DNA from: a virus
Reading direction: 5' to 3' (one strand)
UHGV virus genome: UHGV-0072595
DNA: 18,059 bases
Position numbers and translations under genes: made by a program. The notes below the pieces were generated by a model. That model had not been told where the DNA came from. It worked only from the letters and a program-made list of their open reading frames with translations, and did not search any database. The first letter of the stretch is position 1. Each line of letters begins with the position of its first letter. Positions 1-15,764 of this stretch are shown piece by piece.

Positions 1-312
1 AAACTTGCCATTAACGATTCCATTTTTTCTTGTGCAGGATTTATTACCTTCTTTAATATATTCGCTTTCCCCTCCAACACATGAGGCTGAATATGGCTCA
101 GTTATACGAACCCATTCACCTTTTTTTTCTAGAAAATCTACGCCTTCCCTGAAAAATAGTTTCCCAGCCACTCCACATTTACTTGAAGGGCAGGTATGTC
201 TTTCCGTTCGATCAACAACAACCCATAGTTTTGATTCATTTTTTGCCATTGCCGATGGTATTTGAGATGAGACAATTAACGTAAGCCCTAAAATTAGTAT
301 TGATTTTTTCAT
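1..312 (-). CDS. Secreted protein of unknown function, 5' part only (gene runs off the left edge); N-terminus MKKSILILGLTLIVSSQIPSAMA then a Cys-containing mature region
   Basis: Hand translation of minus strand from ATG at 312: 104 codons with no stop to position 1; AGGAA Shine-Dalgarno 8 nt upstream; classic signal peptide (basic n-region, hydrophobic core, AxA-like site). Not in ORF track because no stop in window. Confidence 0.6.
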   Translation of the reverse strand, partial: MKKSILILGLTLIVSSQIPSAMAKNESKLWVVVDRTERHTCPSSKCGVAGKLFFREGVDFLEKKGEWVRITEPYSASCVGGESEYIKEGNKSCTRKNGIVNGKF

Positions 313-610
313 TGTAATTTCCTTTTACTTTTTACAAAGCGTTTAATCATGGCTGATTATCTCTAAGTGTAGTAACAGCCTTGTGCGAAACATGTTACCA
401 AATCGCCATTTCAGTGTATCCGCAGTTAGGCTGCCACTTCAAGGATTCCTAATTACATGGTACGTAAGCGTAAAATCCCGTTGGTTGGCGGGTAATAACT
501 CTGATCAAATCTCCCTTGTCTTTTGCTCTTACGTATGCAGCTCTTGTGTATTCAACCCAGGCCTCCAGTTCAGCAATACGCTTACTTCCATCCGAGATAA
601 CACCTTCTAC

Positions 611-889
611 TCACGCTGCTCGTTGAGTTTTGATTTTTGCTGTCTCCAGCTCAACACGCAGTTTCCCCACCGTTAGCGCAATATCCTCGTTCTCCTGGTC
701 GCGGCGTTTGATGTATTGCTGGTTTCTTTCCCGTTCATCCAACAATGCCAGCGCGATATCTGGCGAAAAGTGCTTCATAAAATCGTTAAGCGCATTAATT
801 CGCTGATCGAAAGGCATTACAGGTGCTTCACCAGCAATTTTTGTTTTTTCAGCGATTTCACGAAGCTTTTGATAATCAATCTTGCTCAC
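611..889 (-). CDS. Hypothetical protein (about 92 aa from GTG start)
   Basis: Track ORF 611..922; preferred start is GTG at 889, preceded by AAGGAGG at 6 nt spacing and overlapping the upstream stop (GTGA); no recognisable family. Confidence 0.5.
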   Translation of the reverse strand: MSKIDYQKLREIAEKTKIAGEAPVMPFDQRINALNDFMKHFSPDIALALLDERERNQQYIKRRDQENEDIALTVGKLRVELETAKIKTQRAA

Positions 890-1485
890 TGGTTGCCTCC
901 TTTGCGAATCTGTTCCGCCCATTCTTCAAGGGATTTCTCCGCATATTCACCAGACAGGCCATCAATCGGGTGCGGTTCATTAGCTAACTCTTCTTTCGCT
1001 GACAGAATCATGCGTGTAACGTCGAAAACTTCAGCCAAAGGCTTATTGATAAATCCGTGATTGAACGCAGCAGCAAGACGGCTTGCAGTGTAGTTAATCC
1101 CCTCATTGCGTGCTTCCGCGCGAATTTCAGCCAGAAAAGCATCGGTAGCTGGGTGTTCTGTCTGGCTATGCATTGCCCATTCAGATAAGTACTCGAGGCA
1201 ACGGCGAAACTCCTGCCAATCACTGCACATGTTTAGGTTTCCGCCTTCACACTCGAACTGGTAATTCTCTAAACGGTCTGCAAACGCTCTGCCATTCTCG
1301 ATGGCACCAAGTGGAGCATCATATTTCAGCCCCGCATTCTCCGCCGCCAGCGCCGCGCACTTGGCCTCCGCTTCAGCAAATTTACGCACCAGATATTCAG
1401 CGTTTGTTTCGTTAACCTTTAAATCTTGTGGGATGCATTTACCTTTTAGAAATCCATCCATCTCAATTAGTGACATTTGTTTCAT
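886..1485 (-). CDS. Hypothetical protein (about 199 aa)
   Basis: Track ORF 886..1503; preferred start ATG at 1485 forms an ATGA overlap with the upstream stop (1482-1484); no recognisable family. Confidence 0.6.
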
Positions 1486-1664
1486 TTCTTCCCACTCCGC
1501 CACATCGCATTCAGATATTTGTTTTGATTCACTGATGGAAAAGAATTTCTCTTAAGCAATTCCTCTCTCGATGGCATTGGCTTTACGCGTTGGCGAATAA
1601 TCATTTCTGCCGGAAGAATGCCGGGATTGTATGCAAGTCCTCTCATGGTAAATTCCTCAGTCAT
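1482..1664 (-). CDS. Hypothetical small protein (about 54-60 aa; start ambiguous between ATG 1664 and ATG 1646)
   Basis: Track ORF 1482..1799 trimmed to internal ATGs; ATG 1664 overlaps the upstream stop by 8 nt, ATG 1646 has a GAGGA SD. Confidence 0.4.
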
Positions 1665-1953
1665 TACTGATAGCGCCATAGCGTGAGCGGTAATTACGCA
1701 GGCGCGGTTCGATATATTCAGGGAAGTTGGTATATGTGGCTTTGCGGAATGGTCGGATTGATGTCTGGTAAATTCGCTCGCGTTCTTCTTTCTCTGCAAG
1801 CCATATACAGTGGCGAAATTCCTTTTCCTCTTTCGTTTCCTGCGGTAGCGACATTATCCGATCGTAGTTTTTTCTGAATTTATCCAGCACCTCCGATACG
1901 GAATTGCCGGAACAGCGGCGCGCGTCGTCCGCACCATACAGAGGCGCTGGCAT
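1657..1953 (-). CDS. Hypothetical protein (98 aa)
   Basis: Track ORF; AAGGA SD 7 nt upstream of ATG; starts 24 nt after the ssb stop. Confidence 0.55.
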
Positions 1954-1976
1954 AATGGAATCCTTATTTTGCTAAT

Positions 1977-2360
1977 TTAGAAGGGAATTGAATCGTCGTA
2001 TTCAGGATGATTTTGATGATTACTACTTTGCTGCTGCGGGCCATTTCCTGAAGCTGCAAATCCAATCTTTGCATTCAGTAATTCAAGAGTGATTGATTGA
2101 CCATTTTGCCCCTGATAAACATCAACCCTGATGTTTTCTCCGGTAATTTCTACAATGCCACCTTCAACAAGAACACTACGGTAGTAATCCGCTTGCGCTC
2201 CCGGCTTGGCAAATACAACGGCGCTGTAGTTTGTCCATTCTTTCTTTTTTGTCTGGCGATCGTAATACTGAACGCCAGCACGGATGTTGAATCCGATATT
2301 TTCCCCGGCCTGAAACTCTCTTACGGGCTTGTTTAGTCTTACAGTAATCGAATGTGCCAT
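1977..2360 (-). CDS. ssb: Single-stranded DNA-binding protein (phage SSB, about 127 aa)
   Basis: Track ORF 1977..2450 trimmed to ATG at 2360 (MAHSITVRLNK...); OB-fold-like N-terminus, Gly/Gln-rich linker and C-terminal acidic tail DDSIPF typical of bacterial SSB; start overlaps erf stop (TAATG). Confidence 0.85.
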   Translation of the reverse strand: MAHSITVRLNKPVREFQAGENIGFNIRAGVQYYDRQTKKKEWTNYSAVVFAKPGAQADYYRSVLVEGGIVEITGENIRVDVYQGQNGQSITLELLNAKIGFAASGNGPQQQSSNHQNHPEYDDSIPF

Positions 2361-2965
2361 TAAGCAGCCGCTCCTTCTAATTCGTCTCGTCTGATGTTGT
2401 AAACGTCCTGCGCTTTTTGCTGCTCCGGTGTGCCTTCGAGCATCTTCCACGCTTTGGCGAACGCCTGTTTAAGCTCTTCCACGGTGTTTTTCTGCAATGC
2501 TGCGTCAGTGAATGCTTTTAGAACCTGTTCAGGTGTAGGTGATGGTTTTGATTGCTTTGCTGCTGCGCTCTGCTGATGTTTATGCTCGTCTGTATCTGCA
2601 TCTTTCGCATCATCAATGCCGAACAAACCATTGAGGCAATACTTGCGTGCATAAGAGCTTGTAGCGCCCGTAACTTGTGCAGAATCCATTCCTTTCTTGC
2701 TTTCTTCCTCTCGTGCTAGTGCGGTTGCCGTATGACTGTTTTCGCCATCGGTAATAGTTGCCGTGGCTTTCACGTAATACCGATCACCAATCAACACAAC
2801 TTCATCGCTGATTGATAAAAACAGGCCATTCAGTAACGGCTTAACGCCTTCAAGAATGTCTTCGCAGCTTCTGTATTTATATTTACCGAATGAGTTGTAC
2901 TGATTCTTTGGCGCGTTCAGATTCTCCTGAATGGCTGCCAGTCTTGCGTAAAATTCTTTGCTCAT
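2360..2965 (-). CDS. erf: Erf-family single-strand annealing recombinase (P22 Erf-like, about 201 aa)
   Basis: Track ORF 2360..2995 trimmed to ATG 2965 (MSKEFYARLAAIQENLNAPKNQYNSFGKYKYRSCEDILEG...), matching my recollection of P22 Erf. Confidence 0.85.
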   Translation of the reverse strand: MSKEFYARLAAIQENLNAPKNQYNSFGKYKYRSCEDILEGVKPLLNGLFLSISDEVVLIGDRYYVKATATITDGENSHTATALAREEESKKGMDSAQVTGATSSYARKYCLNGLFGIDDAKDADTDEHKHQQSAAAKQSKPSPTPEQVLKAFTDAALQKNTVEELKQAFAKAWKMLEGTPEQQKAQDVYNIRRDELEGAAA

Positions 2966-3054
2966 ATGTTTGTTCTCAGAATGGACATGGCACAAGGAAA
3001 TAACGCTGATTTAATACTTCAGTCTTTGCCGCATTTAAAAATACGCGAACACCT

Positions 3055-3240
3055 TCACGATCTCCCTTCTGGCGATACATTAACGCCTGCTGAGTGTACA
3101 TGCGTCTCTGTAACTTGCTCTCCTTCACTGTGGTTGCAAGTGACATGCATATCTCCTTCGTTACCGATTAAATCTTTCATCTGACGAATGAATTCTTCGT
3201 CTGACCAGTTATCTGTAAAACTCATTTCCTGCGATACCAC
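3055..3240 (-). CDS. Small acidic hypothetical protein in the kil position (56-61 aa; GTG at 3240 or internal ATG)
   Basis: Track ORF; no good SD; position between the cIII-like ORF and erf. Confidence 0.3.
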   Translation of the reverse strand: MVSQEMSFTDNWSDEEFIRQMKDLIGNEGDMHVTCNHSEGEQVTETHVHSAGVNVSPEGRS

Positions 3241-3358
3241 GGAATGTTGATCGCTGATTTCATCGCTTTATTTGCTTCAAGCCACATTTTGGAATCACCA
3301 ATAAATCTGGCTATTACTGCTTTGTTCTGTGCAGCACGAAGCATCTGGTGATTAATGG

Positions 3359-3493
3359 CTATTTCATTGCGCATAACGCCTCCAGTTGTTTCTTTGCTGC
3401 TCTGATTAATTGTTTAATTCGGCGTGATAATTCAGATTCGTGCGGGTAGAAAGCGGACATGACGCCGCTACCCGCGAGCTGAAAGTGCATCAT
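3359..3493 (-). CDS. cIII-like small protein (about 44 aa)
   Basis: Track ORF 3359..3544 trimmed to ATG 3493 with AAGGAG SD at 6 nt; position (between ea10 and the recombination genes) and a short basic helical segment (ESELSRRIKQLIRAAKK) reminiscent of cIII; does not match lambda cIII closely. Confidence 0.45.
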   Translation of the reverse strand: MMHFQLAGSGVMSAFYPHESELSRRIKQLIRAAKKQLEALCAMK

Positions 3494-3568
3494 GGGTAAC
3501 TCCTTATATTTGATTGCATAACGAAAATGCCTCTCGTGAAGCATTATTGGTATGCGGTAAAGCCGCGC

Positions 3569-3937
3569 TCAGGCGGCTTTGATAGTCATATCATCTGAAT
3601 CAAATATTCCTGATGTATCGATATCGGTAATTCTTATTCCTTCGCTACCATCCATTGGAGGCCATCCTTCCTGACCATTTCCATCATTCCAGTCGAACTC
3701 ACACACAACACCATATGCATTTAAGTCGCTTGAAATTGCTATAAGCAGAGCATGTTGCGCCAGCATGATTAATACAGCATTTAATACAGCGCCGTGTTTA
3801 TTGAGTCGGTATTCAGAGTCTGACCAGAAATTATTAATCTGGTGAAGTTTTTCCTCTGTCATTACGTCATGGTCGATTTCAATTTCTATTGATGCTTTCC
3901 AGTCGTAATCAATGATGTATTTTTTGATGTTTGACAT
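3569..3937 (-). CDS. ea10: Ea10 protein (lambda early-left, 122 aa)
   Basis: Track ORF; sequence and length match my recollection of lambda Ea10; located left of ral as in lambda. Confidence 0.8.
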   Translation of the reverse strand: MSNIKKYIIDYDWKASIEIEIDHDVMTEEKLHQINNFWSDSEYRLNKHGAVLNAVLIMLAQHALLIAISSDLNAYGVVCEFDWNDGNGQEGWPPMDGSEGIRITDIDTSGIFDSDDMTIKAA

Positions 3938-3957
3938 CTATTCATATCCTCACAGAT

Positions 3958-3983
3958 AAAAAATCGCCCTCACATTGGAGGGC
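3958..3983 (-). terminator. Intrinsic terminator-like hairpin (GCCCTC/GAGGGC stem) followed by a U-tract on the leftward transcript, between ral and ea10 (tL2-like)
   Basis: Plus strand shows an A6 run then gccctcacattggagggc; on the minus strand this is hairpin plus U-run. Confidence 0.5.
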
Positions 3984-4119
3984 AAAGAAGATTTCCAATA
4001 ATCAGAACAAGTCGGCTCCTGTTTAGTTACGAGCGACATTGCTCCGTGTATTCACTCGTTGGAATGAATACACAGTGCTGTGTTTATTCTGTTGTTTATG
4101 CCAAAAATAAAGGCCACCA

Positions 4120-4320
4120 TCAGGCAGCCTTGTTATTCTGTTTACCAAGTTCTCTGGCAATCATTGCCGTCGTTCGTATTGCCCATTTATCGACATATTT
4201 CCCATCTTCCATTACAGGAAACATTTCTTCAGGCTTAACCATGCATTCCGATTGCAGCTTGCATCCATTGCATCGCTTGAATTGTCCACACCATTGATTC
4301 TTATCAATAGTCGTAGTCAT
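4120..4320 (-). CDS. ral: Ral restriction-alleviation protein (66 aa)
   Basis: Track ORF MTTTIDKNQWCGQFKRCNGCKLQSEC...; matches lambda Ral as I recall it. Confidence 0.9.
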   Translation of the reverse strand: MTTTIDKNQWCGQFKRCNGCKLQSECMVKPEEMFPVMEDGKYVDKWAIRTTAMIARELGKQNNKAA

Positions 4321-4390
4321 ACGGATAGTCCTGGTATTGTTCCATCACATCCTGCGGATGCTCTTCGAACTCTTCAAATTCTTCTTCCAT
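4304..4390 (-). CDS. Small acidic ORF (28 aa, MEEEFEEFEEHPQDVMEQYQDYPYDYDY), lambda orf28-like, overlapping the ral start by 17 nt
   Basis: Hand translation of minus strand; same size and same overlap with ral as lambda orf28 by my recollection. Confidence 0.55.
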   Translation of the reverse strand: MEEEFEEFEEHPQDVMEQYQDYPYDYDY

Positions 4391-4398
4391 ATATCACC

Positions 4399-4725
4399 TC
4401 AAATAAGTGGTTTGCTGCCTAATTTCATTTTCTGGCGACCAACACAAGTCACCCCCATTTCACTGCGTGGCTTGCTGTACCATGTGCGCTGATTCTTGCG
4501 CTCAATACGTTGCAGGTTGCTTTCAATCTGTTCGTGGTATTCAGCCAGCACTGTAAGGTCTATTGGATTCAGTGCGCTTTCTACTCGTGATTTCGGTTTG
4601 CGATTCAGCGAGAGAATAGGGCGGTTAACTGGTTTTGCGCTTACCCCAACCAACAGGGGATTTGCTGCTTTCCATTGAGCCTGTTTCTCTGCGCGACGTT
4701 CGCGGCGGCGTGTTTGTGCATCCAT
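4399..4725 (-). CDS. N: Antiterminator N (lambda N-like; C-terminal residues differ slightly from my recollection of lambda N)
   Basis: Track ORF MDAQTRRRERRAEKQAQWKAANPLLVGVSAKPVNRPILSLNRKPKSRVESALNPIDLTVLAEYH... including the arginine-rich boxB-binding motif; downstream of nutL on the pL transcript. Confidence 0.9.
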   Translation of the reverse strand: MDAQTRRRERRAEKQAQWKAANPLLVGVSAKPVNRPILSLNRKPKSRVESALNPIDLTVLAEYHEQIESNLQRIERKNQRTWYSKPRSEMGVTCVGRQKMKLGSKPLI

Positions 4726-4914
4726 CTGGATTCTCCTGTCAGTTAGCTTTGGTGATTGGATGGCCGGCGCTGAACCCCGGCTTACTGGTTAGAGCGCCCG
4801 CACTACCAGTGACGCTGTCTTGAGGCGCAGATTGGTTACTGCTTGCCATGAGCGCTGTTTATACATTGGTCGAGCATCAGCCTGCTCATTCATCCAATCC
4901 CAAAGCCTTCTGCT

Positions 4915-4945
4915 TTGAATGCTGCCCTTCTTCAGGGCTTAATTT
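4915..4945 (-). promoter_or_regulatory. nutL (boxB hairpin GCCCTGAAGAAGGGC at 4915-4929 and boxA CGCTCTTA at 4938-4945, read on the minus strand)
   Basis: Exact lambda boxA and boxB motifs seen on the reverse complement. Confidence 0.85.
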
Positions 4946-4993
4946 TTAAGAGCGTCACCTTCATGGTGGTCAGTGCGTCCTGCTGATGTGCTC

Positions 4994-5056
4994 AGTATCA
5001 CCGCCAGTGGTATTTATGTCAACACCGCCAGAGATAATTTATCACCGCAGATGGTT
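4994..5056 (-). promoter_or_regulatory. pL promoter with operators OL1 (4996-5012), OL2 (5020-5036), OL3 (5040-5056); -10 GATACT (4994-4999) and -35 TTGACA (5017-5022) on the minus strand
   Basis: Three 17-bp TATCACCGC/CAACACCGC-type operator half-site pairs identical in form to lambda OL; promoter hexamers at 17-bp spacing. Confidence 0.85.
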
Positions 5057-5202
5057 ATCTGTATGTTTTTTATATGAATTTATTTTTTGCAGGGGGGGCA
5101 TTGTTTGGTAGGTGAGAGATCTGAATTGCTATGTTTAGTGAGTTGTATCTATTTATTTTTCAATAATACAATTGGTTATGTGTTTTGGGGGCGATCGTGA
5201 GG

Positions 5203-5229
5203 CAAAGAAAACCCGGCGCTGAGGCCGGG
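5203..5229 (-). terminator. Intrinsic terminator immediately after the rexB stop (CCCGGC/GCCGGG stem plus U-tract on the minus strand), tIMM-like
   Basis: Plus strand acccggcgctgaggccggg preceded by aaagaaa; on the minus strand hairpin then UUUUCUUU. Confidence 0.6.
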
Positions 5230-5664
5230 TTATTCTTGTTCTCTGGTCAAATTATATAGTTGGAAAACAAGGATGCATATATGAATGAACGATGCAGAGG
5301 CAATGCCGATGGCGATAGTGGGTATCATGTAGCCGCTTATGCTGGAAAGAAGCAATAACCCGCAGAAAAACAAAGCTCCAAGCTCAACAAAACTAAGGGC
5401 ATAGACAATAACTACCGATGTCATATACCCATACTCTCTAATCTTGGCCAGTCGGCGCGTTCTGCTTCCGATTAGAAACGTCAAGGCAGCAATCAGGATT
5501 GCAATCATGGTTCCTGCATATGATGACAATGTCGCCCCAAGACCATCTCTATGAGCTGAAAAAGAAACACCAGGAATGTAGTGGCGGAAAAGGAGATAGC
5601 AAATGCTTACGATAACGTAAGGAATTATTACTATGTAAACACCAGGCATGATTCTGTTCCGCAT
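5230..5664 (-). CDS. rexB: RexB (membrane component of the Rex abortive-infection/exclusion system, 144 aa)
   Basis: Track ORF; multi-pass hydrophobic protein of the right size immediately downstream of rexA as in lambda. Confidence 0.9.
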   Translation of the reverse strand: MRNRIMPGVYIVIIPYVIVSICYLLFRHYIPGVSFSAHRDGLGATLSSYAGTMIAILIAALTFLIGSRTRRLAKIREYGYMTSVVIVYALSFVELGALFFCGLLLLSSISGYMIPTIAIGIASASFIHICILVFQLYNLTREQE

Positions 5665-5679
5665 AATTACTCCTGATAA

Positions 5680-6519
5680 TTAATCCTTAACTTTGCCCAC
5701 CTGCCTTTTAAAACATTCCAGTATATCACTTTTCATTCTTGCGTAGCAATATGCCATCTCTTCAGCTATCTCAGCATTGGTGACCTTGTTCAGAGGCGCT
5801 GAGAGATGGCCTTTTTCTGATAGATAATGTTCTGTTAAAATATCTCCGGCCTCATCTTTTGCCCGCAGGCTAATGTCTGAAAATTGAGGTGACGGGTTAA
5901 AAATAATATCCTTGGCAACCTTTTTTATATCCCTTTTAAATTTTGGCTTAATGACTATATCCAATGAGTCAAAAAGCTCCCCTTCAATATCTGTTGCCCC
6001 TAAGACCTTTAATATATCGCCAAATACAGGTAGCTTGGCTTCTACCTTCACCGTTGTTCGGCCGATGAAATGCATATGCATAACATCGTCTTTGGTGGTT
6101 CCCCTCATCAGTGGCTCTATCTGAACGCGCTCTCCACTGCTTAATGACATTCCTTTCCCGATTAAAAAATCTGTCAGATCGGATGTGGTCGGCCCGAAAA
6201 CAGTTCTGGCAAAACCAATGGTGTCGCCTTCAACAAACAAAAAAGATGGGAATCCCAATGATTCGTCATCTGCGAGGCTGTTCTTAATATCTTCAACTGA
6301 AGCTTTAGAGCGATTTATCTTCTGAACCAGACTCTTGTCATTTGTTTTGGTAAAGAGAAAAGTTTTTCCATCGATTTTATGAATATACAAATAATTGGAG
6401 CCAACCTGCAGGTGATGATTATCAGCCAGCAGAGAATTAAGGAAAACAGACAGGTTTATTGAGCGCTTATCTTTCCCTTTATTTTTGCTGCGGTAAGTCG
6501 CATAAAAACCATTCTTCAT
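5680..6519 (-). CDS. rexA: RexA (sensor component of the Rex system, 279 aa)
   Basis: Track ORF MKNGFYATYRSKNKGKDKRSINLSVFLNSLLADNHHLQ...; matches lambda RexA as I recall it; cotranscribed with cI. Confidence 0.9.
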   Translation of the reverse strand: MKNGFYATYRSKNKGKDKRSINLSVFLNSLLADNHHLQVGSNYLYIHKIDGKTFLFTKTNDKSLVQKINRSKASVEDIKNSLADDESLGFPSFLFVEGDTIGFARTVFGPTTSDLTDFLIGKGMSLSSGERVQIEPLMRGTTKDDVMHMHFIGRTTVKVEAKLPVFGDILKVLGATDIEGELFDSLDIVIKPKFKRDIKKVAKDIIFNPSPQFSDISLRAKDEAGDILTEHYLSEKGHLSAPLNKVTNAEIAEEMAYCYARMKSDILECFKRQVGKVKD

Positions 6520-6631
6520 AATTCAATCCATTTACTATGTTATGTTCTGAGGGGAGTGAAAATTCCCCTAATTCGATGAAGATTCTTGCTCAATTGTTAT
6601 CAGCTATGCGCCGACCAGAACACCTTGCCGA

Positions 6632-7348
<717 letters not shown>

Positions 7349-7355
7349 TTAAATC

Positions 7356-7421
7356 TATCACCGCAAGGGATAAATATCTAACACCGTGCGTGTTGACTAT
7401 TTTACCTCTGGCGGTGATAAT
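7356..7421. promoter_or_regulatory. Right operator region: OR3 (7356-7372), OR2 (7379-7395), OR1 (7403-7419) with divergent pRM (leftward) and pR (-35 TTGACT 7393-7398, -10 GATAAT 7416-7421)
   Basis: Operator sequences TATCACCGCAAGGGATA, TAACACCGTGCGTGTTG, TACCTCTGGCGGTGATA read directly; these are the lambda OR sites. Confidence 0.9.
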
Positions 7422-7436
7422 GGTTGCATGTACTAA

Positions 7437-7646
<210 letters not shown>

Positions 7647-7653
7647 ATAACCC

Positions 7654-7685
7654 CGCTCTTACACATTCCAGCCCTGAAAAAGGGC
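7654..7685 (+). promoter_or_regulatory. nutR (boxA CGCTCTTA 7654-7661; boxB GCCCTGAAAAAGGGC 7671-7685)
   Basis: Exact lambda-type boxA/boxB motifs downstream of cro. Confidence 0.85.
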
Positions 7686-7764
7686 ATCAAATTAAACCAC
7701 ACCTATGGTGTATGCATTTATTTGCATACATTCAATCAATTGTTATCTAAGGAAATACTTACAT

Positions 7765-8043
7765 ATGCAACTTACAAGTACTCGCAAGAAAGCGAATGCA
7801 ATTACAAGCAACATCCTGAATCGAATTGCTGTACGTGGTCAGCGAAAGGTTGCCGACGTGTTAGGGATTAATGAATCGCAAATTTCGCGATGGAAAGACA
7901 GCTTTATCCCAAAGATGGCCATGCTTCTGGCTGTGCTGGAATGGGGTGTTGAAGACGAGGAGTTGGCGGAACTGGCTAAGCAAGTAGCCAGAATGCTGAC
8001 AAAAGAAAAAGCCCCGAAGAACGGCGAATTCTTCGAGGCCTGA
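7765..8043 (+). CDS. cII: cII-like transcriptional activator (about 92 aa; non-lambda allele)
   Basis: Track ORF 7705..8043 trimmed to ATG 7765 (AAGGA SD; same leader as lambda cII). Shares ...[20 protein letters not shown]... with lambda cII but differs elsewhere. Confidence 0.8.
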
Positions 8044-8077
8044 TGTAGAAAGACTGGATCAATCCACAGGAGTAATT

Positions 8078-8224
8078 ATGACAAAACAACTCAGTCCTTA
8101 CCAGGACAAAATTCACAAACACATACTACGTGATCGCTTCCTGTCCAGCTTCAAGCAGCCTGGTCGATTCCGGGCTGAGTTGGAAAAAGTGAAGCTGATG
8201 CAGAAGGAGAAAGGTCATGAGTAA
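8078..8224 (+). CDS. Small basic hypothetical protein (48 aa) between cII and the O-like gene
   Basis: Hand translation [48 protein letters not shown]; AGGAG SD 6 nt upstream; stop overlaps the O-like start region. Confidence 0.4.
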
Positions 8225-9077
8225 TCTTGCAACCGTAACACATTTAAGGCCTTCACAACGGCCTGTGGAGCGTCGTGTGGCAGAAGTTGAAGATGGTTAT
8301 ACCCGTCTTGCAAATGCCCTGTATGAAGAGCTTATCGGCGCAGATTTAACGAAAAATCAGAGCAAGGTTGCCCACGCCATATGCCGTAAAACATACGGCT
8401 ACGGTAAAAAGATGGATCGCATCTCTGATAGTCAGTTAGCTCAAATTACCAGGCTGCCAAGACAGAAGGTAAACAAGGCCAAGAATGAGCTTATCGCGAT
8501 GAAGGTTATCCTTCGCGAAGGCCAGCAAATCGGGCCTAACAAGAACATCGAGGAATGGCAAATCGAAGGGTGTCACTACTCTGGTGATAATGTCACTGCA
8601 TTGGTGACAAAAAGTGTCACCAAAACGGTGACAGCGCTGTCACCAAAACAGGGACACACAAAAGAAACTATTACAAAAGAAAAAAGAAATAATAAAAACA
8701 CTATGTCCGAAAGTGTTCGGACGGAGTGTGAAAAATCACATGACCGTCACGAAGAAACCGACAAGGCATTCGAGGAAATATTCTGGTGTGCAGGCATGCG
8801 GAAAGCCGGGAAGAAAAACGCAGCTTCGGCATTCAGAACACAGTTCAGGGAATGGCGTAAAACTACCAGGGGGACGGCAAGCGAGTTTGCCACGATGCTG
8901 GCAGAAGACATCGCATGCAGGAATGGTAAGCAGTTCGGATTCGACAGGTTGTTACCATCGAGCTACCTGAACGGTCAACGCTGGAACGACGAAAAGCCAG
9001 AAACCATTCAACCACAATCCAAACCATCATCCGCAATCACCGTATCGAAAACTGGCTACGTGTTTTTCGACAGGTGA
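8217..9077 (+). CDS. Replication initiator, lambda O-like N-terminal iteron-binding domain with a divergent C-terminal domain (286 aa)
   Basis: Track ORF; N-terminus shares the O-family pattern DDGYxRL...ADLTKxQxKV...RKTYGxxKxMDRIxDSQL...GPNKNIxEW with lambda O; gene contains its own iteron/AT-rich origin. Confidence 0.85.
8582..8700. repeat. Replication origin inside the O-like gene: three to four iterons built on GGTGACA/TGTCACC inverted half-sites (about 8582-8650) followed by an A-rich region
   Basis: Direct reading: ctGGTGAtaaTGTCACtgca, ttGGTGACAaaaagTGTCACCaaaac, GGTGACAgcgcTGTCACCaaaac, then acaaaagaaactattacaaaagaaaaaagaaataataaaaac. Confidence 0.7.
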
Positions 9078-9080
9078 ACC

Positions 9081-9188
9081 ATGAAATCAAAAATCAAATC
9101 GCTACTGGTCGCTGGTTATAACCACGGCTGGTTAAGTATTTCGTTTGTCGATTTCTGGTTTAAAAATCTCAATCTGAGGGAATCATGA
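9081..9188 (+). CDS. Possible small coupled ORF (35 aa) between the O-like gene and the primase-helicase
   Basis: Hand translation MKSKIKSLLVAGYNHGWLSISFVDFWFKNLNLRES; start 4 nt after the O stop; stop overlaps the primase-helicase ATG (ATGA). Confidence 0.3.
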   Translation: MKSKIKSLLVAGYNHGWLSISFVDFWFKNLNLRES

Positions 9189-11065
9189 CGCCAAGTGAAC
9201 TTAGCGACCTGCTTTGGGCGCAGGTTGACAGGGTGGCTCCGCACCTGTTGCCAAACGGCAAGAAAGAGGGGCATGAGTGGGTTGCCGGTAACATCAACGG
9301 TGACAAGGGAAACAGCCTTAAGGTCAACCTTAGCGGCAAGAAAAAATGGGCTGATTTCGCTGAGGGAGACGGCGGTGACATGCTTGATTTGTGGATGGCA
9401 TGTCGTGGAATTAACCTGCATCAGGCTATGCAGGAAGCGAAAGCATTTCTCGGTATCAAGGATGACGATCACCATTTCGATGCCAGACGTGAGAAAAAAT
9501 TCTCCAGACCTGATCGCAAGAAAATCGCCCGCTACGTTACCAGAACAGAATCCCATCTTGAGTACCTGCAATCGCGTGGCATATCGCCAGAAATCGTAAA
9601 GCGCTACGAGGTTGTCAGCGGCAAGGTGTGGAATGGAGAGCGGGAACTGGATGCTCTGGTGATTCCGTACAAACGCGATGGTGAGTTGTTGCAGGTCAAG
9701 CGAATCAGCACTGAGCGCCCGGACGGGAAGAAAGTCATTATGGCAGAAGGTGATTGCGAACCTTGTCTGTTCGGATGGCAGGCTCTGGACGCTGGCGTGA
9801 GGGCGGTTGTACTTTGCGAAGGCGAAATTGATTGTATGAGCTATGCGCAATACGGCATCTCGGCGTTATCCGTACCGTTTGGTGGAGGGAAAGGCGCTAA
9901 GCAACAGTGGATTGAGTTTGAGTATCACAACCTCGACAGGTTTGAGGAAATATTCATCTCGATGGACGTTGATGATGTTGGTCGTGAAGCCGCAAGGGAA
10001 ATCGCAAGCCGACTCGGTGAACATCGTTGCCGTCTTGTTACTCTGCCGTACAAAGACATCAACGAATGCCTGATGAACGGTGTTACCGAGGATGCAATCT
10101 GGCAGTACATCGGCACGGCATCCTACTTTGATCCTGAAGAACTCTACAGCGCGCGAGAGTTTTACCAGGACACTATCAACGCTTTCTACGGCAAGCAGCA
10201 GTATCTGTTTAATCCACCGTGGGAATCTCTGGCAGATAAATTCCAGTTCCGTGAGGCCGAGTTGACGCTGGTCAATGGTGTGAACGGTCACGGAAAAACG
10301 GAGGTTGTCGGGCATATGGCACTTGAGGCAATGCGTCAGGGTGTGAAGACGTGCATCGCGTCACTTGAGCTGAAGCCTGGTATTCTCCTTAAGCGCCTTA
10401 CCCGTCAGGCAACGTGCTGCAAGATGCCGCCAGTGCTGGAAATTGACTCTGCATTTAAATTTTATGACGAAAGACTTTGGGTGTTTGGCCTGACCGGAAC
10501 GGCGAAAGCCGACAGGCTGATCGAAATATTCGACTACGCTCGCCGCCGATACGGGATCCAGTTATTCATCATCGACAGCCTGATGAAATGTGGCATAGGC
10601 GACGATGACTATAACGGGCAGAAGGCGTTTGTTGACTCGATTTGCGACTTCAAAAACAAAACAAACTCCCACGTCATTCTCGTTACTCACTCGCGAAAAG
10701 GAGACAGCGAAGAAAAACCAACCGGGAAAATGGACGTAAAAGGCTCTGGAGCGATAACAGACCTGACAGACAACCTTTTCATCATCTGGCGTAACAAGGC
10801 TCGCGAGAGAGCGTTACAGAGAGTTCAGAGTGGTGAAAAGATGTCAGAGAAGGACGAACAGGTACTGGCGTCTCCGGCATCTGTTTTGATGCTTGAAAAA
10901 CAACGAAACGGCGAAGGTTGGGAAGGTGGTGTCCCGTTGTTCCTTGACGAGCAATCGCACCAGTTCCTGCAACTTGAATCAGGATCGCCATATAGCTACA
11001 TCGCCAATATGCCGAAATCGGAATATGACGAGGCGTGGCGACAGGAAAACGTGACGGAGTATTAA
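9185..11065 (+). CDS. Bifunctional DNA primase-helicase (N-terminal primase/Toprim-like region, C-terminal DnaB/RecA-like helicase), replaces lambda P (626 aa)
   Basis: Track ORF; acidic Toprim-like motifs (CEGEIDCMS, MDVDDVGRE), Walker A NGVNGHGKTE and Walker B-like LFIIDSLMK in the C-terminal half. Confidence 0.8.
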   Translation: MTPSELSDLLWAQVDRVAPHLLPNGKKEGHEWVAGNINGDKGNSLKVNLSGKKKWADFAEGDGGDMLDLWMACRGINLHQAMQEAKAFLGIKDDDHHFDARREKKFSRPDRKKIARYVTRTESHLEYLQSRGISPEIVKRYEVVSGKVWNGERELDALVIPYKRDGELLQVKRISTERPDGKKVIMAEGDCEPCLFGWQALDAGVRAVVLCEGEIDCMSYAQYGISALSVPFGGGKGAKQQWIEFEYHNLDRFEEIFISMDVDDVGREAAREIASRLGEHRCRLVTLPYKDINECLMNGVTEDAIWQYIGTASYFDPEELYSAREFYQDTINAFYGKQQYLFNPPWESLADKFQFREAELTLVNGVNGHGKTEVVGHMALEAMRQGVKTCIASLELKPGILLKRLTRQATCCKMPPVLEIDSAFKFYDERLWVFGLTGTAKADRLIEIFDYARRRYGIQLFIIDSLMKCGIGDDDYNGQKAFVDSICDFKNKTNSHVILVTHSRKGDSEEKPTGKMDVKGSGAITDLTDNLFIIWRNKARERALQRVQSGEKMSEKDEQVLASPASVLMLEKQRNGEGWEGGVPLFLDEQSHQFLQLESGSPYSYIANMPKSEYDEAWRQENVTEY

Positions 11066-11094
11066 ATGACCATCTACATCACTGAGCTTGTAAC

Positions 11095-11126
11095 AGGCCT
11101 GCTGGTAATCGCAGGCCTTTTTATTT
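11095..11126 (+). terminator. Intrinsic terminator after the replication genes (8-bp perfect stem CAGGCCTGC/GCAGGCCT plus U-tract), tR2-like position
   Basis: Direct reading caggcctgctggtaatcgcaggcctttttattt 30 nt after the primase-helicase stop. Confidence 0.65.
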
Positions 11127-11141
11127 GGGGGAGAGTAAATC

Positions 11142-11348
11142 GTGGTTGAGTTTATGCTCGTCGCACTCAAATGCGTTGGCGTTGGATGGATTCTTCTGAC
11201 GTTTTTTATTGTTCTGCATAGCTACATTCGCCTTGTGAATGACGGTAAAGATCCATGGTATACGTTGTTTGGCGCTGCATTTGTCTGGGTGATTATCGGT
11301 GTTATGCCTGTCGCTGTAGCAAAAATGGCGTGGCGTTTTGTGAGTTGA
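11142..11348 (+). CDS. Small two-helix membrane protein (68 aa from GTG; 64 aa if ATG 11154)
   Basis: Track ORF; GGGGGAGAG SD upstream of the GTG; two hydrophobic segments (GVGWILLTFFIVL and LFGAAFVWVIIGVMPVAV) separated by a short polar loop. Confidence 0.55.
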   Translation: MVEFMLVALKCVGVGWILLTFFIVLHSYIRLVNDGKDPWYTLFGAAFVWVIIGVMPVAVAKMAWRFVS

Positions 11349-11365
11349 ACTGAGGGTAAGTATCG

Positions 11366-11686
11366 ATGGACGAATCAAGAAAGCAGTTTGAAGAAAGTTG
11401 GTTGCGACGTGGAGGCGAATCTTCAGACCTTATCCGTTACCCTGAAAATCACCATGAAATTGGCAGTGGTGATATTGGTGGTCAATACGTGATGGACGAT
11501 GTTCAAGGCCACTGGCAAACGTGGCAGGCATCGCGAGCAGCTATTGAAATAACCGCGCCAAAGTTTATCGACAGCAGAGAAGCATTAGCCAAAGGGTTTA
11601 CTGTTGATTATTCCAATGGCTTCGGTGATGCAATGGATGCTTATGAGGAAAACATCCGCGCTGCTGGAGTCAAAGTGAAGGAGTGA
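11366..11686 (+). CDS. Hypothetical protein (106 aa)
   Basis: Track ORF; same-strand operon context; no family recognised. Confidence 0.55.
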   Translation: MDESRKQFEESWLRRGGESSDLIRYPENHHEIGSGDIGGQYVMDDVQGHWQTWQASRAAIEITAPKFIDSREALAKGFTVDYSNGFGDAMDAYEENIRAAGVKVKE

Positions 11687-11688
11687 GT

Positions 11689-11853
11689 ATGAGCGCATAC
11701 GAAGAAATCATGTTAGCCCTGCGATTCTTTTTCGGTGTGGAAGAAGATGAAAACGTAAATGAGATTATCGGGCAAGACCATGACCCGATAGGGACTATTG
11801 CAGCTGCACTTGACGATTACAGGAGTGTAAATGGTGAGGAAACTAACGTTTGA
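11689..11853 (+). CDS. Small acidic hypothetical protein (54 aa), 3' end overlaps the ninB start by 23 nt
   Basis: Hand translation MSAYEEIMLALRFFFGVEEDENVNEIIGQDHDPIGTIAAALDDYRSVNGEETNV; AAGGAG SD at 5 nt. Confidence 0.4.
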   Translation: MSAYEEIMLALRFFFGVEEDENVNEIIGQDHDPIGTIAAALDDYRSVNGEETNV

Positions 11854-12274
11854 ACTAAGAAGCCCCATCCATCAGCAGAACGCCATTCAAGCTATCCAGC
11901 AAATTCTTCCAGACCCAACCAAACCAATCGTAGTAACCATTCAGGAACGCAACCGCAGCTTAGACCAAAACAGGAAGCTATGGGCCTGCTTAGGTGACGT
12001 CTCTCGTCAGGTTGAATGGCATGGTCGCTGGCTGGATGCAGAAAGCTGGAAGTGTGTGTTTACCGCAGCATTAAAGCAGCAGGATGTTGTTCCTAACCTT
12101 GCCGGGAATGGCTTTGTGGTAATAGGCCAGTCAACCAGCAGGATGCGTGTAAGCGAATTTGCGGAGCTATTAGAGCTTATACAGGCATTCGGTACAGAGC
12201 GTGGCGTTAAGTGGTCAGACGAAGCGAGACTGGCTCTGGAGTGGAAAGCGAGATGGGGAGATCGGGCTGCATGA
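11831..12274 (+). CDS. ninB: NinB (Orf family recombination mediator, 147 aa)
   Basis: Track ORF MVRKLTFELRSPIHQQNAIQAIQQILPDPTKPIVVTIQERNRSLDQNRKLWACLGDVSRQVEWHGRWLDAESWK...; matches lambda NinB as I recall it. Confidence 0.9.
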   Translation: MVRKLTFELRSPIHQQNAIQAIQQILPDPTKPIVVTIQERNRSLDQNRKLWACLGDVSRQVEWHGRWLDAESWKCVFTAALKQQDVVPNLAGNGFVVIGQSTSRMRVSEFAELLELIQAFGTERGVKWSDEARLALEWKARWGDRAA

Positions 12275-12798
12275 CTATCAAATCAAATACGCCAGCACAC
12301 GACAAGGACTGCTGGCAAACGCCGCTTTGGCTTTTTGATGCACTGGATATTGAGTTTGGATTCTGGCTGGATTCGGCAGCGAGCGACAAAAATGCTCTGT
12401 GTGCTCACTGGCTAACTGAGGCCGACGACGCGCTCAATTCTGAGTGGGTAAGCCACGGTGCAATCTGGAATAACCCACCGTACAGCAATATCAGGCCGTG
12501 GGTGGAAAAAGCCGCTGAGCAGTGCATACAACAGCGACAGACGGTAGTTATGCTTGTGCCAGAGGATATGTCAGTCGGATGGTTCAGCAAGGCTCTGGAG
12601 AGTGTCGACGAAGTTCGCATCATCACTGATGGACGGATTAATTTTATCGAACCATCGACAGGGCTGGAGAAGAAGGGAAACAGCAAAGGCTCCATGCTGC
12701 TGATTTGGCGACCGTTCATCAGTCCTCGACGGATGTTTACTACCGTATCCAAAGCGGCATTGATGGCGATCGGGCAGGGCGTCAGGAGGGCGGCATGA
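12271..12798 (+). CDS. Phage DNA N6-adenine methyltransferase (Dam family; motif WNNPPYSN), about 175 aa
   Basis: Track ORF 12211..12798 trimmed to ATG 12271 (ATGA overlap with ninB stop); NPPY catalytic motif of N6-adenine/N4-cytosine MTases; small size and no adjacent restriction enzyme. Confidence 0.8.
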
Positions 12799-12971
12799 GG
12801 CGACAGCGACGAAGTTTCACCGACATCATCTGCGAAAACTGCAAATACCTTCCAACGAAACGCTCCAGAAATAAACGCAAGCCAATCCCAAAAGAATCTG
12901 ACGTAAAAACCTTCAATTACACAGCTCACCTGTGGGATATCCGGTGGCTAAGATATCGTGCGAGGAAATGA
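12795..12971 (+). CDS. ninE: NinE (58 aa)
   Basis: Hand-trimmed from track ORF 12705..12971; [58 protein letters not shown] matches lambda NinE as I recall it; ATGA overlap with the MTase stop. Confidence 0.8.
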
Positions 12972-13393
12972 CAATGGATTATTCACAGTTAAGTGATTTT
13001 GAAATTAACAGACGAGTATGTGAGGCTTTAGATATGGAGGAGCATTTCTTCATACCTGATGACGAAGCAGACTTCGATTCTGAGATCCCCACTGACGAAA
13101 GAGGTCCTATTTGGCAGACGCAAAAAAGGGATATTAATGGCTTCCGTTCTTCAAACGGGAATTGCTTCAATCCTTGCAATAATCCTGAATACGCGTGGCC
13201 AATTATCACTGAAAGCAAAATCAGCACTATGTGGATGACAGCGGAAAAAGAATGGTGCGCATGGTCAGGAGGTGATTTAGAGGAAGGTTGTTGGGAATGG
13301 GAAAATATTCCTGGCTACTACTTCTGTGGCGAATCGCCTCTCCGCGCCGCCATGATTGTCTTTCTCATGATGCAGGACGCTAATAATGCTTAG
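12968..13393 (+). CDS. NinX-position protein, Cys/Trp-rich, unknown function (about 141 aa)
   Basis: Track ORF 12932..13393 trimmed to ATG 12968 (ATGA overlap with ninE stop); sits between ninE and ninF where P22-type nin regions carry ninX. Confidence 0.5.
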
Positions 13394-13562
13394 TCCATCC
13401 CAATCTCTTCAATACCAGAAAGAAAGCGTCGAGCGAGCTTTAACGTGCGCTAACTGCGGTCAGAAGCTGCATGTGCTGGAAGTTCACGTGTGTGAGCACT
13501 GCTGCGCAGAACTGATGAGCGATCCGAATAGCTCAATGTACGAGGAAGAAGACGATGAATGA
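13386..13562 (+). CDS. ninF: NinF (58 aa, Cys-rich)
   Basis: Hand translation [58 protein letters not shown]; matches lambda NinF as I recall it. Confidence 0.8.
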   Translation: MLSPSQSLQYQKESVERALTCANCGQKLHVLEVHVCEHCCAELMSDPNSSMYEEEDDE

Positions 13563-14277
13563 GTTAATAAATGGCAATGCCATCAAAATGACAAGCATTG
13601 AAATCGCTGAGTTGGTGGGTAAGCGTCATGACAATGTGAAACGTACCATCGAAACGCTGGCTAAAAATGGTGTTATCCGGCTTCCTCAAATTGAGGTTTC
13701 CGAAAGAATCAATAACTTAGGGTTCAATGTTCAGTACGAGCATTACGTCTTCGAGGGCGAACAAGGTAAGCGAGACAGTATTGTCGTTGTTGCCCAGTTG
13801 TCGCCAGAGTTCACCGCTCGTCTTGTTGACCGTTGGCGAGAGCTTGAAGAAACTGCGGTTAATATCCCCAAAACGCTACCAGAAGCATTGCGCCTTGCTG
13901 CTGATCTTGCTGAGCAGAAAATGCAACTGGAAAACCAGCTCGCAATTGCCGCACCTAAAGTTGAGTTTGCCGATCGCGTTGGCGAGGCCAGTGGAATTTT
14001 GATTGGAAACTTTGCAAAGGTTGTTGGTATTGGTCCGAACAAACTGTTTGCGTGGATGCGCGATCACAAAATCCTTATTGCTTCAGGTTCCCGGCGCAAT
14101 GTGCCAATGCAGGAATATATGGATCGCGGCTATTTCGCAGTGAAAGAAACAGCGGTCAACACAAATCACGGAATACAGATATCGTTCACCACAAAAATCA
14201 CCGGGCGTGGTCAACAGTGGCTGACCAGAAAGCTGCTCGATAACGGAATGCTGAAAGTAACAGGGGAGGCTGCTTAA
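13555..14277 (+). CDS. Roi/Rha-like phage regulatory protein with antirepressor (KilA-C-like) C-terminal region (240 aa)
   Basis: Track ORF; N-terminal MTSIEIAELVGKRHDNVKR motif typical of lambdoid Roi/Rha proteins; assignment from memory of family patterns. Confidence 0.6.
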   Translation: MNELINGNAIKMTSIEIAELVGKRHDNVKRTIETLAKNGVIRLPQIEVSERINNLGFNVQYEHYVFEGEQGKRDSIVVVAQLSPEFTARLVDRWRELEETAVNIPKTLPEALRLAADLAEQKMQLENQLAIAAPKVEFADRVGEASGILIGNFAKVVGIGPNKLFAWMRDHKILIASGSRRNVPMQEYMDRGYFAVKETAVNTNHGIQISFTTKITGRGQQWLTRKLLDNGMLKVTGEAA

Positions 14278-14567
14278 TGGCTAACCTACGCAAAGAAGCG
14301 CGCGGCAGAGAATGCCAGGTACGTATTTACGGCGTATGCAATGGTAATCCTGAAACTACAGTTCTGGCACATTACCGGATGGCTGGAATTTGCGGAACTG
14401 GAATGAAGCCTGACGACCTGATCGGCGCATGGGCTTGTAGCGCGTGTCACGATGAAATCGACCGACGCACAATGATTCTCGACAACAAAGACGCCAGACT
14501 TTACCACCTCGAAGGCGTGATCAGGACGCAGGCGATACTGCTGAAGGAGGGGAAGATTAAGCCATGA
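14277..14567 (+). CDS. YbcO-like (DUF1364) Cys/His-rich putative zinc-binding nuclease (96 aa)
   Basis: Track ORF; conserved CxVR...C...HxR...C...CSACH arrangement; immediately upstream of rusA as in the E. coli DLP12 prophage. Confidence 0.6.
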   Translation: MANLRKEARGRECQVRIYGVCNGNPETTVLAHYRMAGICGTGMKPDDLIGAWACSACHDEIDRRTMILDNKDARLYHLEGVIRTQAILLKEGKIKP

Positions 14568-14926
14568 ACGAATATCAGTTTGTGCTTCCATACCCGCCGT
14601 CGGTGAACACCTACTGGCGAAGACGGGGAAGCCAATACTACATCAGCGATAAAGGCCAGAAATACCGAAAAGACGTTCAGCAAATCATCCGCCAACTCAA
14701 GTTAGACATTTTCACCAAATCACGACTCCGCATCAAAGTCATCGCAGACGTTCCAGACTCCCGCCGCCGCGACCTCGATAACATCCTGAAAGGTTTACTC
14801 GATTCCCTTATCCACGCCGGATTTGCGGAAGACGACGAGCAATTCGATGACATTCGCGTAATTCGTGGTGTGAAAGTACCAGGCGGACGGCTTGGAATAA
14901 AAATCACCGAACTGGAGAACGCATGA
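14564..14926 (+). CDS. rusA: RusA Holliday-junction resolvase (120 aa)
   Basis: Track ORF; LPYPPSVNTYW... N-terminus and DxRRRDLDN catalytic motif characteristic of RusA. Confidence 0.9.
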   Translation: MNEYQFVLPYPPSVNTYWRRRGSQYYISDKGQKYRKDVQQIIRQLKLDIFTKSRLRIKVIADVPDSRRRDLDNILKGLLDSLIHAGFAEDDEQFDDIRVIRGVKVPGGRLGIKITELENA

Positions 14927-15111
14927 ACGCCACAATTCAAACGATACCAGAGCTTCTTATCCAGACACGAGGCAATCAGACCGAAGTGGCTAGGATGCTT
15001 TCCTGCGCAAGAGGAACAGTGCTCAAGTACAACCGAGACAGCAAAGGCGATCGTCACGTAATAGTTAACGGCGTCCTGATGGTCAAACAGGGAAAGAGGG
15101 GAAGACGATGA
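14923..15111 (+). CDS. ninH: NinH-like protein (62 aa)
   Basis: Track ORF; ...GNQTEVARMLSCARGTVLKY... matches the NinH HTH-like core; ATGA overlaps on both sides. Confidence 0.75.
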   Translation: MNATIQTIPELLIQTRGNQTEVARMLSCARGTVLKYNRDSKGDRHVIVNGVLMVKQGKRGRR

Positions 15112-15626: not shown

Positions 15627-15633
15627 CCATAAT
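15604..15633 (+). promoter_or_regulatory. Candidate late promoter pR' (-35 TTGACA 15604-15609, 18-bp spacer, -10 CATAAT 15628-15633), overlapping the Q stop
   Basis: Hexamers read directly; position relative to Q and downstream terminator fits the lambdoid late-control architecture. Confidence 0.5.
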
Positions 15634-15644
15634 TAGAGGGTAAG

Positions 15645-15689
15645 CTGCCGTTAGTGACTCTTAAGTTGCAACGGTGGCTTTTTTTATTT
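15645..15689 (+). terminator. Terminator-like imperfect hairpin followed by a U-rich tract (TTTTTTTATTT), candidate tR'
   Basis: ctgccgtt...aacggtggc stem with G-U pairs and an extended inner stem, then U-tract, directly downstream of the putative pR'. Confidence 0.45.
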
Positions 15690-15764
15690 GGGTCAGTCGT
15701 ATAAAGGTCATTACGGAAGGCTGTTAACCTTCTTATCGTGGTTCGAGTCCACGCTGTCCCGCCA
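15690..15764 (+). tRNA. tRNA-Asn(GUU)-like gene with encoded CCA; atypical (one U-U mismatch in the acceptor stem, weak D-stem)
   Basis: Manual fold: acceptor GGGTCAG/CTGTCCC, anticodon stem GAAGG/CCTTC with loop CTGTTAA, T-arm CGTGG-TTCGAGT-CCACG, discriminator G, CCA. Confidence 0.5.

Follow-up and report, generated by a model that had tools for sequence, protein, structure and literature searches.

The left end of the 18,059-nt stretch of viral DNA analysed here (UHGV virus genome UHGV-0072595; the whole stretch is referred to as the window) raises the question of whether a minus-strand reading frame that is cut by the window edge is a functional gene, to which class of prophage genes it belongs, and what its product may do. 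In the initial annotation, which was made from the DNA letters only, the frame was read as the beginning of an independently regulated gene for an exported protein that acts on the lysogen.

The translation of the minus strand from position 312 to position 1 was reproduced exactly, with 104 codons and no stop up to the window edge. The Shine-Dalgarno sequence AGGAA was confirmed at positions 319-323 (minus strand), 6 nt before the ATG at 312-310, and is also conserved in the copy of Escherichia fergusonii. The feature at 1-312 (minus strand) is the 5′ part of a cargo gene, codons 1-104 of 204, and is missing from the ORF track because open reading frames running off the end of the source are not listed there. 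The plus-strand ORF at 5-265 was rightly not taken for the real gene; it is an antisense shadow of the cargo gene, and all annotations and homologues use the minus-strand frame.

The 303 nt and the stop codon that lie beyond the window are known from identical copies elsewhere. In the matching records the complete gene has a length of 615 nt and encodes a protein of 204 aa which is annotated as hypothetical protein (WP_000748282.1; XNS39576.1), and the 104 residues encoded in the window are 100% identical to WP_000748282.1 of E. coli AVS0969. The full protein matched PHROG 8310 (function unknown) from end to end with an E-value of 1.8e-136, and the two entries represent the same protein, from a family without assigned function. 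There is no Pfam or NCBIfam model for the PHROG 8310 family, and a literature search on the protein, PHROG 8310 or phage Chlobot returned nothing specific. The homology search by which the gene was to be checked yielded, besides PHROG 8310, 83 homologues at E <= 1e-3; these proteins are about 200 aa long, come from Escherichia, Pseudomonas, Aeromonas and metagenomes, and carry no functional name in any case.

The dN/dS ratio was 0.129 between two E. coli alleles, 0.075 between the E. coli and the E. fergusonii copy and 0.05-0.08 for Pseudomonas pairs, and the cargo gene is under strong purifying selection (0.05-0.13 overall). On account of this selection and of the intact copies elsewhere, the gene is real and functional in the family; of its own copy, the window itself shows only codons 1-104. 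A frameshift or stop just beyond the window had been considered as a sign of a pseudogene; of the 132 complete E. coli genomes with the gene, 130 have it at full length. Nor is it a host housekeeping gene that marks the prophage boundary, since the gene is also located inside an isolated phage genome and the prophage runs on to int and the attachment site beside sbcB or ybhC.

Prophage setting and layout of the cassette

The window represents a lambdoid early region with genes for Ead/Ea22-like, ERF, DUF2528, RexB, RexA, CI and O proteins, together with a toprim-DnaB-like primase-helicase gene and two tRNAs. RexB (144 aa), RexA (279 aa) and a CI-type S24/HTH repressor (237 aa) are encoded together at 5230-7345, which constitutes a lambda-like immunity region including the RexAB abortive-infection pair. 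In the replication module at 8217-11065 a lambda O-like initiator is followed by a primase-helicase of 626 aa (toprim and DnaB-like, AAA_25/DnaB_C) that replaces a helicase loader of the lambda P type. The tRNA-Asn (GTT) and tRNA-Thr (TGT) are located at 15690-15845 between the Q antiterminator and the lysis genes.

The cargo gene occupies the distal end of the leftward arm, between ea22-like genes and xis/int; the reading as a gene for an exported protein in the early region of a phage is supported. In AVS0969 and Chlobot the genes that follow it are, in order, a fragment of an S24 (UmuD-like) gene, a gene of 339 nt that is interrupted by a stop, one with DUF2513, one of 168 nt and finally xis/int, which stands at the chromosomal junction. 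As found by megablast, many E. coli prophages and the isolated Escherichia phage Chlobot contain positions 1-752 of the window at 99.3-99.6% identity. No complete E. coli genome spanned the whole window, and the best matches covered either 1-752 or 645-17009. The prophage of KE40 is 99.6% identical over 645-17009 but lacks positions 1-644; in this slot its ea22 gene is intact and is accompanied by only one gene, of 282 nt, so that the position between the ea22-like genes and xis/int is a variable cargo slot.

Upstream of the cargo gene, a truncated Ead/Ea22-like ORF of 103 aa is located at 611-922 (minus strand; Pfam Ead_Ea22, E 1.2e-19), and homology breakpoints place the mosaic junction with sister prophages inside this gene at about 645-752. 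Beyond the TGA at 611-613, another 53 codons can be read in frame down to position 452; the corresponding decayed ea22-like tail (53 in-frame codons and stop; 449-610, minus strand) lies outside the cassette, and its peptide has relatives in other coliphages with 51-56% identity (E about 1e-6). The equivalent ea22-like gene is called frameshifted or incomplete by RefSeq. Because the frame remains open and its peptide has coliphage relatives, the gap of about 300 bp of non-coding DNA that had been described upstream of the cargo gene has to be corrected to a true spacer of about 136 bp (313-448) and a gene remnant. A plus-strand ORF at 383-676 (L001 6392-6676), which is a CDS in the Chlobot annotation and lies antisense to the ea22 tail and the leader, is probably a spurious gene call.

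A leader of about 135 nt (313-447, minus strand) travels with the gene. Aligned from about position 447 to the ATG, it shares 79.6% identity with its counterpart in E. fergusonii, where the copy of the gene is located on a phage-plasmid and encodes a protein with 89% identity; the synonymous sites of the ORF show about 53% identity (pS 0.474) in the same comparison, which is below the value of the leader. No Rfam family matched the leader, and no LexA box was found in the leader of the window. The leader contains the promoter-like element TTGAAG-N18-TACACT (413-442, minus strand), which is unique within the window and represents a candidate promoter agreeing with the consensus at 8 of 12 positions; a consensus promoter scan of the minus strand with a threshold of 9/12 consequently gave no match. 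Both hexamers are invariant in the 7 distinct leaders from 40 E. coli-type loci and in E. fergusonii, and 5 bases of the 18-base spacer between them differ in the latter. Independent regulation, as proposed in the initial annotation, is therefore a conjecture based on a promoter-like element with only 8/12 consensus positions.

Insertion sequences were observed in the same leader. In at least six complete E. coli genomes an IS1 element is inserted about 50 bp upstream of the ATG (window positions of about 360-365), and the same holds for one IMG/VR contig (locus L108, about 5150-5950, and genomes H22-H28 are involved); in one genome an IS5 element is present in this region. The insertions part the TTGAAG-N18-TACACT element from the gene and could silence or re-drive it.

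About 75-90 nt downstream of the stop codon, the E. coli copy and the E. fergusonii copy each have a GC-rich hairpin with a T-run after it. The hairpin downstream of the E. coli-type gene (AAAAGCCCGCA...TGCGGGCTTT) has a folding energy of -18 kcal/mol (z -3.2) and that of E. fergusonii of -15 kcal/mol (z -4.5), and their sequences differ.

Morons have been characterized by a deviant GC content, a promoter and terminator of their own, their presence as extra DNA in comparison to related phages, and expression from the repressed prophage (PMC3594210). The GC content of the gene and its flanks is 36-40%, in comparison to 45-51% in the neighbours. The region is extra DNA, given that KE40 lacks 1-644 and that the gene occurs in just 132 of 5426 complete E. 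coli genomes. Together with the conserved leader that travels with the gene and the terminator hairpin downstream, these formal hallmarks agree with the moron assignment made initially. Two of the four properties are thus present, and the promoter/terminator property is present by half, the promoter being only a candidate. The gene behaves as a moron-type single-gene cassette with a putative promoter and putative expression in the lysogen.

Predicted export and domain architecture of the protein

Behind its predicted export signal, the protein has an N-terminal domain of SH3b fold that contains a Cys-bracketed insert; a linker of the type RPxDP connects this domain to an alpha/beta domain of 78 aa at the C-terminus. 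The alignment of the homologues showed two conserved blocks joined by the RPxDP linker, with 16 invariant residues and six near-invariant cysteines. The structure model of the protein was confident.

The type I signal peptide claimed initially, MKKSILILGLTLIVSSQIPSAMA followed by KNES, was upheld when its n-, h- and c-regions and the AxA motif were read by eye. It comprises codons 1-23 (244-312, minus strand) with the layout MKK / SILILGLTLIV / SSQIPSAMA, then K, and cleavage by signal peptidase I is predicted after AMA. At the N-terminus, each complete family member has a hydrophobic signal, a lipobox, or a zinc ribbon with a transmembrane (TM) anchor. Lipoboxes are present in some distant relatives; a lipobox with the invariant +1 Cys is absent from the window copy, for which the LPAM_1 match remained below the threshold (14.1 vs 20 bits). 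As residues 1-40 contain no Cys, the window copy is not a lipoprotein.

The SH3b-type domain covers residues 27 to about 110, of which residues 27-104 are encoded in the window (1-234, minus strand). It includes the conserved cysteines C41, C46, C78 and C93, and the Cys-bracketed insert spans residues 78-93. With the full protein as query, Pfam SH3_3 (PF08239) stayed below the cut-off (16.2 bits vs 27, E 0.012, residues 40-72). Among the 83 proteins of the homologue search PF08239 is precomputed for 11 matches, and among longer relatives SH3_3 was significant in 29 of 45 (best E 1.6e-14), by which the SH3b assignment is confirmed at the level of sequence. Searches with the full protein against NCBIfam, PADLOC and PDB sequences returned zero matches.

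The co-occurrence of the cysteines was counted in 125 proteins covering residues 41-184. All six cysteines are present in 101 proteins, the four of the N-domain are jointly absent in 22, and two proteins keep C41/C46 only in the N-domain; C158/C184 are missing in none. The cysteines hence come or go strictly as pairs or sets, the pattern to be expected if three intradomain disulfides (41-46, 78-93 and 158-184) are formed in an oxidising compartment. From this pattern and the textbook signal peptide we infer that the protein is periplasmic.

The C-terminal module of 78 aa is the universally conserved piece of the family and also occurs alone behind export signals or anchors; SDD[YF], GGW and YFTYCGG are among its conserved motifs. 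A profile search among 1.84 billion representative proteins retrieved at least 524 clusters at 50% identity (E <= 1e-3) across Proteobacteria and beyond, in which the domain is located at the C-terminus. The architectures include a signal peptide or lipobox alone (about 100-130 aa), a signal peptide with SH3b (about 180-260 aa), a cytoplasmic zinc ribbon with a TM helix and, rarely, ankyrin repeats, IalB or an Imm_superinfect membrane domain. No Pfam domain covers the module in any member, no match was found among catalogued families and solved folds, and the source names of cluster members and distant relatives are solely 'hypothetical' or 'exported hypothetical protein'. A match to de novo designed TIM barrels in a PDB profile search (E 1e-8) was rejected as an artefact, since it sums four matches of about 8 bits to an internally repeated designed sequence. 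On these comparisons the C-terminal module is an autonomous, uncatalogued module that is predicted to be extracytoplasmic.

In Agrobacterium/Rhizobium (L158-L165) a standalone C-domain protein of 102 aa, consisting of signal peptide and domain, is encoded among small prophage-type genes (DUF6074, DUF3102, Phage_endo_I, HicA). In this context the C-domain alone also appears as mobile-element cargo in alphaproteobacteria.

Distribution and proposed role

With the gene alone as query, the 132 carriers amount to about 2.4% of the complete E. coli genomes, and the 130 essentially full-length copies match it at 97.6-100% nucleotide identity. The gene is also present at full length in phage Chlobot. 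It was found in only 1 of 50,697 GenBank phage records, in 28 plasmids and in 51 IMG/VR viral contigs. The contexts of the homologues are diverse: in Pseudomonas they lie directly downstream of a tyrosine integrase in islands of about 6 kb, in an Aeromonas prophage between a Q-like antiterminator and the holin, on a Citrobacter ColRNAI plasmid of 5.3 kb as one of four annotated genes, on an IncA plasmid within a Rac-like prophage fragment, in Agrobacterium as the standalone version just described, and in about 12 Vibrio species and some alphaproteobacteria at ordinary chromosomal positions.

In the Pseudomonas islands (L003 6402-12411, L006, L007, L022, L025, L027 and L028) the homologue is the first gene after a tyrosine integrase of 424-499 aa, and the islands share recurring unannotated genes for proteins of about 208/236, 105, 130, 337 and 174 aa. 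These neighbours gave weak KilA-N/DUF6971 matches only and no PADLOC match, and the islands may represent an undescribed small integrative element. The homologue on the Citrobacter plasmid (L014, NZ_CP115736.1, 5310 bp) is 64% identical, and its presence on a four-gene plasmid suggests that the gene is selectable on its own.

In an all-against-all comparison of neighbours across 80 loci (77 at species level) no partner gene was conserved family-wide. Synteny was lineage-specific only, in Vibrio and in the Pseudomonas integrase islands, and that of Vibrio is uninformative because the neighbours, judged by eye, look like a GGDEF-EAL protein, SecDF and NapABC. Likewise, no recurrent neighbour in the 80 loci qualified as a cognate effector of the T6SS/CDI type adjoining the gene; an orphan immunity gene is still compatible with this result.

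The explanation which we consider best, with a confidence slightly above even, is a prophage cargo cassette encoding a wall-tethered, non-enzymatic envelope factor. Positions 1-312 of the window would then be the 5′ half of a functional single-gene moron cassette in the ea22-xis/int slot, which would be composed of the leader of about 135 nt with its weak promoter-like element, the ORF of 204 codons and an intrinsic terminator. The protein would be exported by Sec and cleaved after Ala23, and DsbA would form the three predicted disulfides within the domains. Taken together, the claims on gene, cassette and export are held with high confidence. The SH3b domain would tether the protein to peptidoglycan, which is likely. 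The C-terminal domain would be the working end, since it forms the invariant core of the family and occurs alone, and it would act through binding and not through catalysis, as judged from its small size and from the absence of a catalytic-type residue constellation. The factor might shield or occupy peptidoglycan against a muralytic or envelope-acting agent to the benefit of the host; such an agent could be a T6SS effector, a lysozyme or the lysozyme in the tail of a superinfecting phage. This protective or inhibitory role in the envelope is proposed tentatively and is more doubtful than the tethering. The roles in lysogenic conversion, exclusion or inhibition suggested in the initial annotation are likewise conjecture, with no match in PADLOC, Pfam or NCBIfam and no known inhibitor fold: neither sequence (Pfam) nor fold matched the lysozyme inhibitors Ivy, MliC/PliC and PliG, and PADLOC reported 0 families for anti-phage defence or superinfection exclusion. 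A fusion with the Pfam Imm_superinfect membrane domain occurs in one distant relative, which is anecdotal.

Among the alternatives, the gene could be an accessory of the lytic cycle and not a lysogen-expressed moron, with transcription only after induction, at the far end of the N-antiterminated PL operon; its wall-binding product would aid the phage cycle, for example by preparing or timing the breakdown of the cell wall. Its orientation is that of the early-left operon (N, kil, erf, ea genes, the gene, xis/int), the minus strand contains no consensus sigma-70 promoter, and SH3b domains are classic partners of phage muralytic enzymes. We regard this alternative as unlikely, considering that most family members are found outside phages, on plasmids, integrase islands and chromosomes as compared with the single phage record, that the cassette owns a conserved leader and a terminator, that the sister prophage manages without the gene, and that the gene lies far from the lysis genes.

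It is also improbable that the gene is a neutral or mildly beneficial hitch-hiker, with a periplasmic, wall-associated product of general structural or binding function and without any role related to phages or conflict. The mobile copies are kept under strong purifying selection, and the repeated independent capture by very different mobile elements, including the four-gene plasmid of 5.3 kb, suggests a selectable and self-sufficient benefit. In favour of such a hitch-hiker are the conserved chromosomal versions, whose synteny is stable in about 12 Vibrio species and in alphaproteobacteria, the diverse modes of anchoring, and the result that neither a partner gene nor a defence-system match was found.

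A further alternative arises from genes of the UmuD/UmuC type, which are located within 3 kb of the homologue in six independent lineages. According to this alternative, the product would be an SOS-linked envelope protein that is functionally coupled to UmuD/UmuC-type modules and induced by DNA damage, and the prophage copy would be the relic of such an operon. At two loci (L023 4019-6411 and L024 4760-7152) the homologue lies between umuD and umuC with gaps of 45 and 10 bp and an alpha-type LexA box at umuD. In E. fergusonii an intact S24 peptidase gene has a perfect LexA box (CTGTATATAAACACAG) in front of it, and the homologue begins 158 bp beyond this gene (L106 2325-3524). A 37-aa S24 fragment with 76% identity to the E. 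fergusonii S24 protein is located 154 bp downstream of every E. coli-type copy (L001 5437-5547; L002 7437-7547), and umuD or umuC is nearby at three other loci (L066 6393-8564, L088 1008-2686 and L150 2147-6594). Moreover, PL transcription of the prophage is itself triggered by SOS. Against this stand the restriction of the adjacency to only about 6 of roughly 100 distinct contexts, the absence of a family-wide partner among the 77 species-level loci, the leader of the window without a LexA box, and the lack of a mechanism joining a periplasmic wall binder to translesion synthesis. As umuDC-like operons are common cargo of mobile elements, their co-residence may be incidental. The adjacency, seen in a minority of contexts, is a lead and not a finding, and an SOS-linked envelope protein is considered quite unlikely.

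Elements of the preferred explanation and of this lead can be joined to a speculative reading, to which a low probability is assigned: the C-domain may be a new extracytoplasmic family that serves as a portable wall 'shield' against a muralytic or envelope-acting enzyme and is deployed upon SOS or induction. Delivery would be by SH3b, a lipid anchor or a TM anchor, and the timing of deployment would follow from the repeated linkage with LexA-controlled umuD/umuC and with the prophage early operon.

Finally, a non-functional frame (a pseudogene, a chance frame or a shadow of the plus-strand ORF 5-265 as the real gene), to which the truncated frame in the window and the decayed flanks (ea22 with an internal TGA, the S24 fragment and the 339-nt gene) could point, is highly improbable and is refuted for the family by the intact 204-aa frame in nearly all carrier genomes, the low dN/dS values, the at least 83 homologues with their 16 invariant residues, the confident structure model and the uniform use of the minus-strand frame, with the copy of the window being seen as its 5′ half only.

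Comparison with known systems

Known exported or envelope-directed phage morons include gp15 of HK97, Bor and Lom of lambda and Cor of phi80 and N15. With these the gene shares that it is a self-contained add-on with deviant GC content, a leader and a terminator, that it is missing from close relatives, and that its product is small and, as predicted here, targeted to the envelope. It differs from HK97 gp15, Bor, Lom and Cor in that there is no kinship in sequence or fold, that its promoter is only weakly consensus-like, and that the family is much commoner outside phages.

The literature on SH3b deals with wall-binding domains of endolysins. Unlike the SH3b domains of endolysins, lysostaphin and NlpC/P60 hydrolases, that of the present protein is not accompanied by a catalytic domain and belongs to a predicted periplasmic protein of Gram-negative bacteria. 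Unlike its SH3b-only relatives, it contains a Cys-bracketed insert of 16 residues and two predicted disulfides.

Small periplasmic inhibitors and immunity proteins, such as Ivy, MliC/PliC, PliG, the immunity proteins of T6SS amidases and Sp of T4, provide a further comparison. The protein resembles these by analogy in being small, predicted to be exported and disulfide-stabilised, encoded by a single gene and free of an enzymatic signature, and the C-domain resembles them in that it also occurs alone, with about 100 aa, in apparently secreted or lipid-anchored form. It is distinguished from Ivy, MliC/PliC, PliG and the immunity proteins by the lack of a Pfam or fold match and of an adjacent effector.

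The known part of the protein is its membership in PHROG 8310 and, by fold, in the SH3b superfamily, and the new part is the uncatalogued, putative effector domain. A well-understood wall-targeting domain is thus paired with a widespread and confidently folding domain that is undescribed in the databases, and a function for the C-domain would annotate hundreds of protein clusters together. Morons are among the chief means by which prophages alter their hosts, and the majority are functionally dark. Plasmids, integrase islands and prophages have repeatedly picked up the present gene in several bacterial classes, so that it is probably selectable on its own. Should the adjacency to umuDC prove real, it would suggest that the SOS response has an envelope arm hitherto unrecognised. 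In comparison to the systems named above, the gene is a well-supported 'known unknown' and not a surprise, with the novel domain and the linkage to umuDC most worth following.
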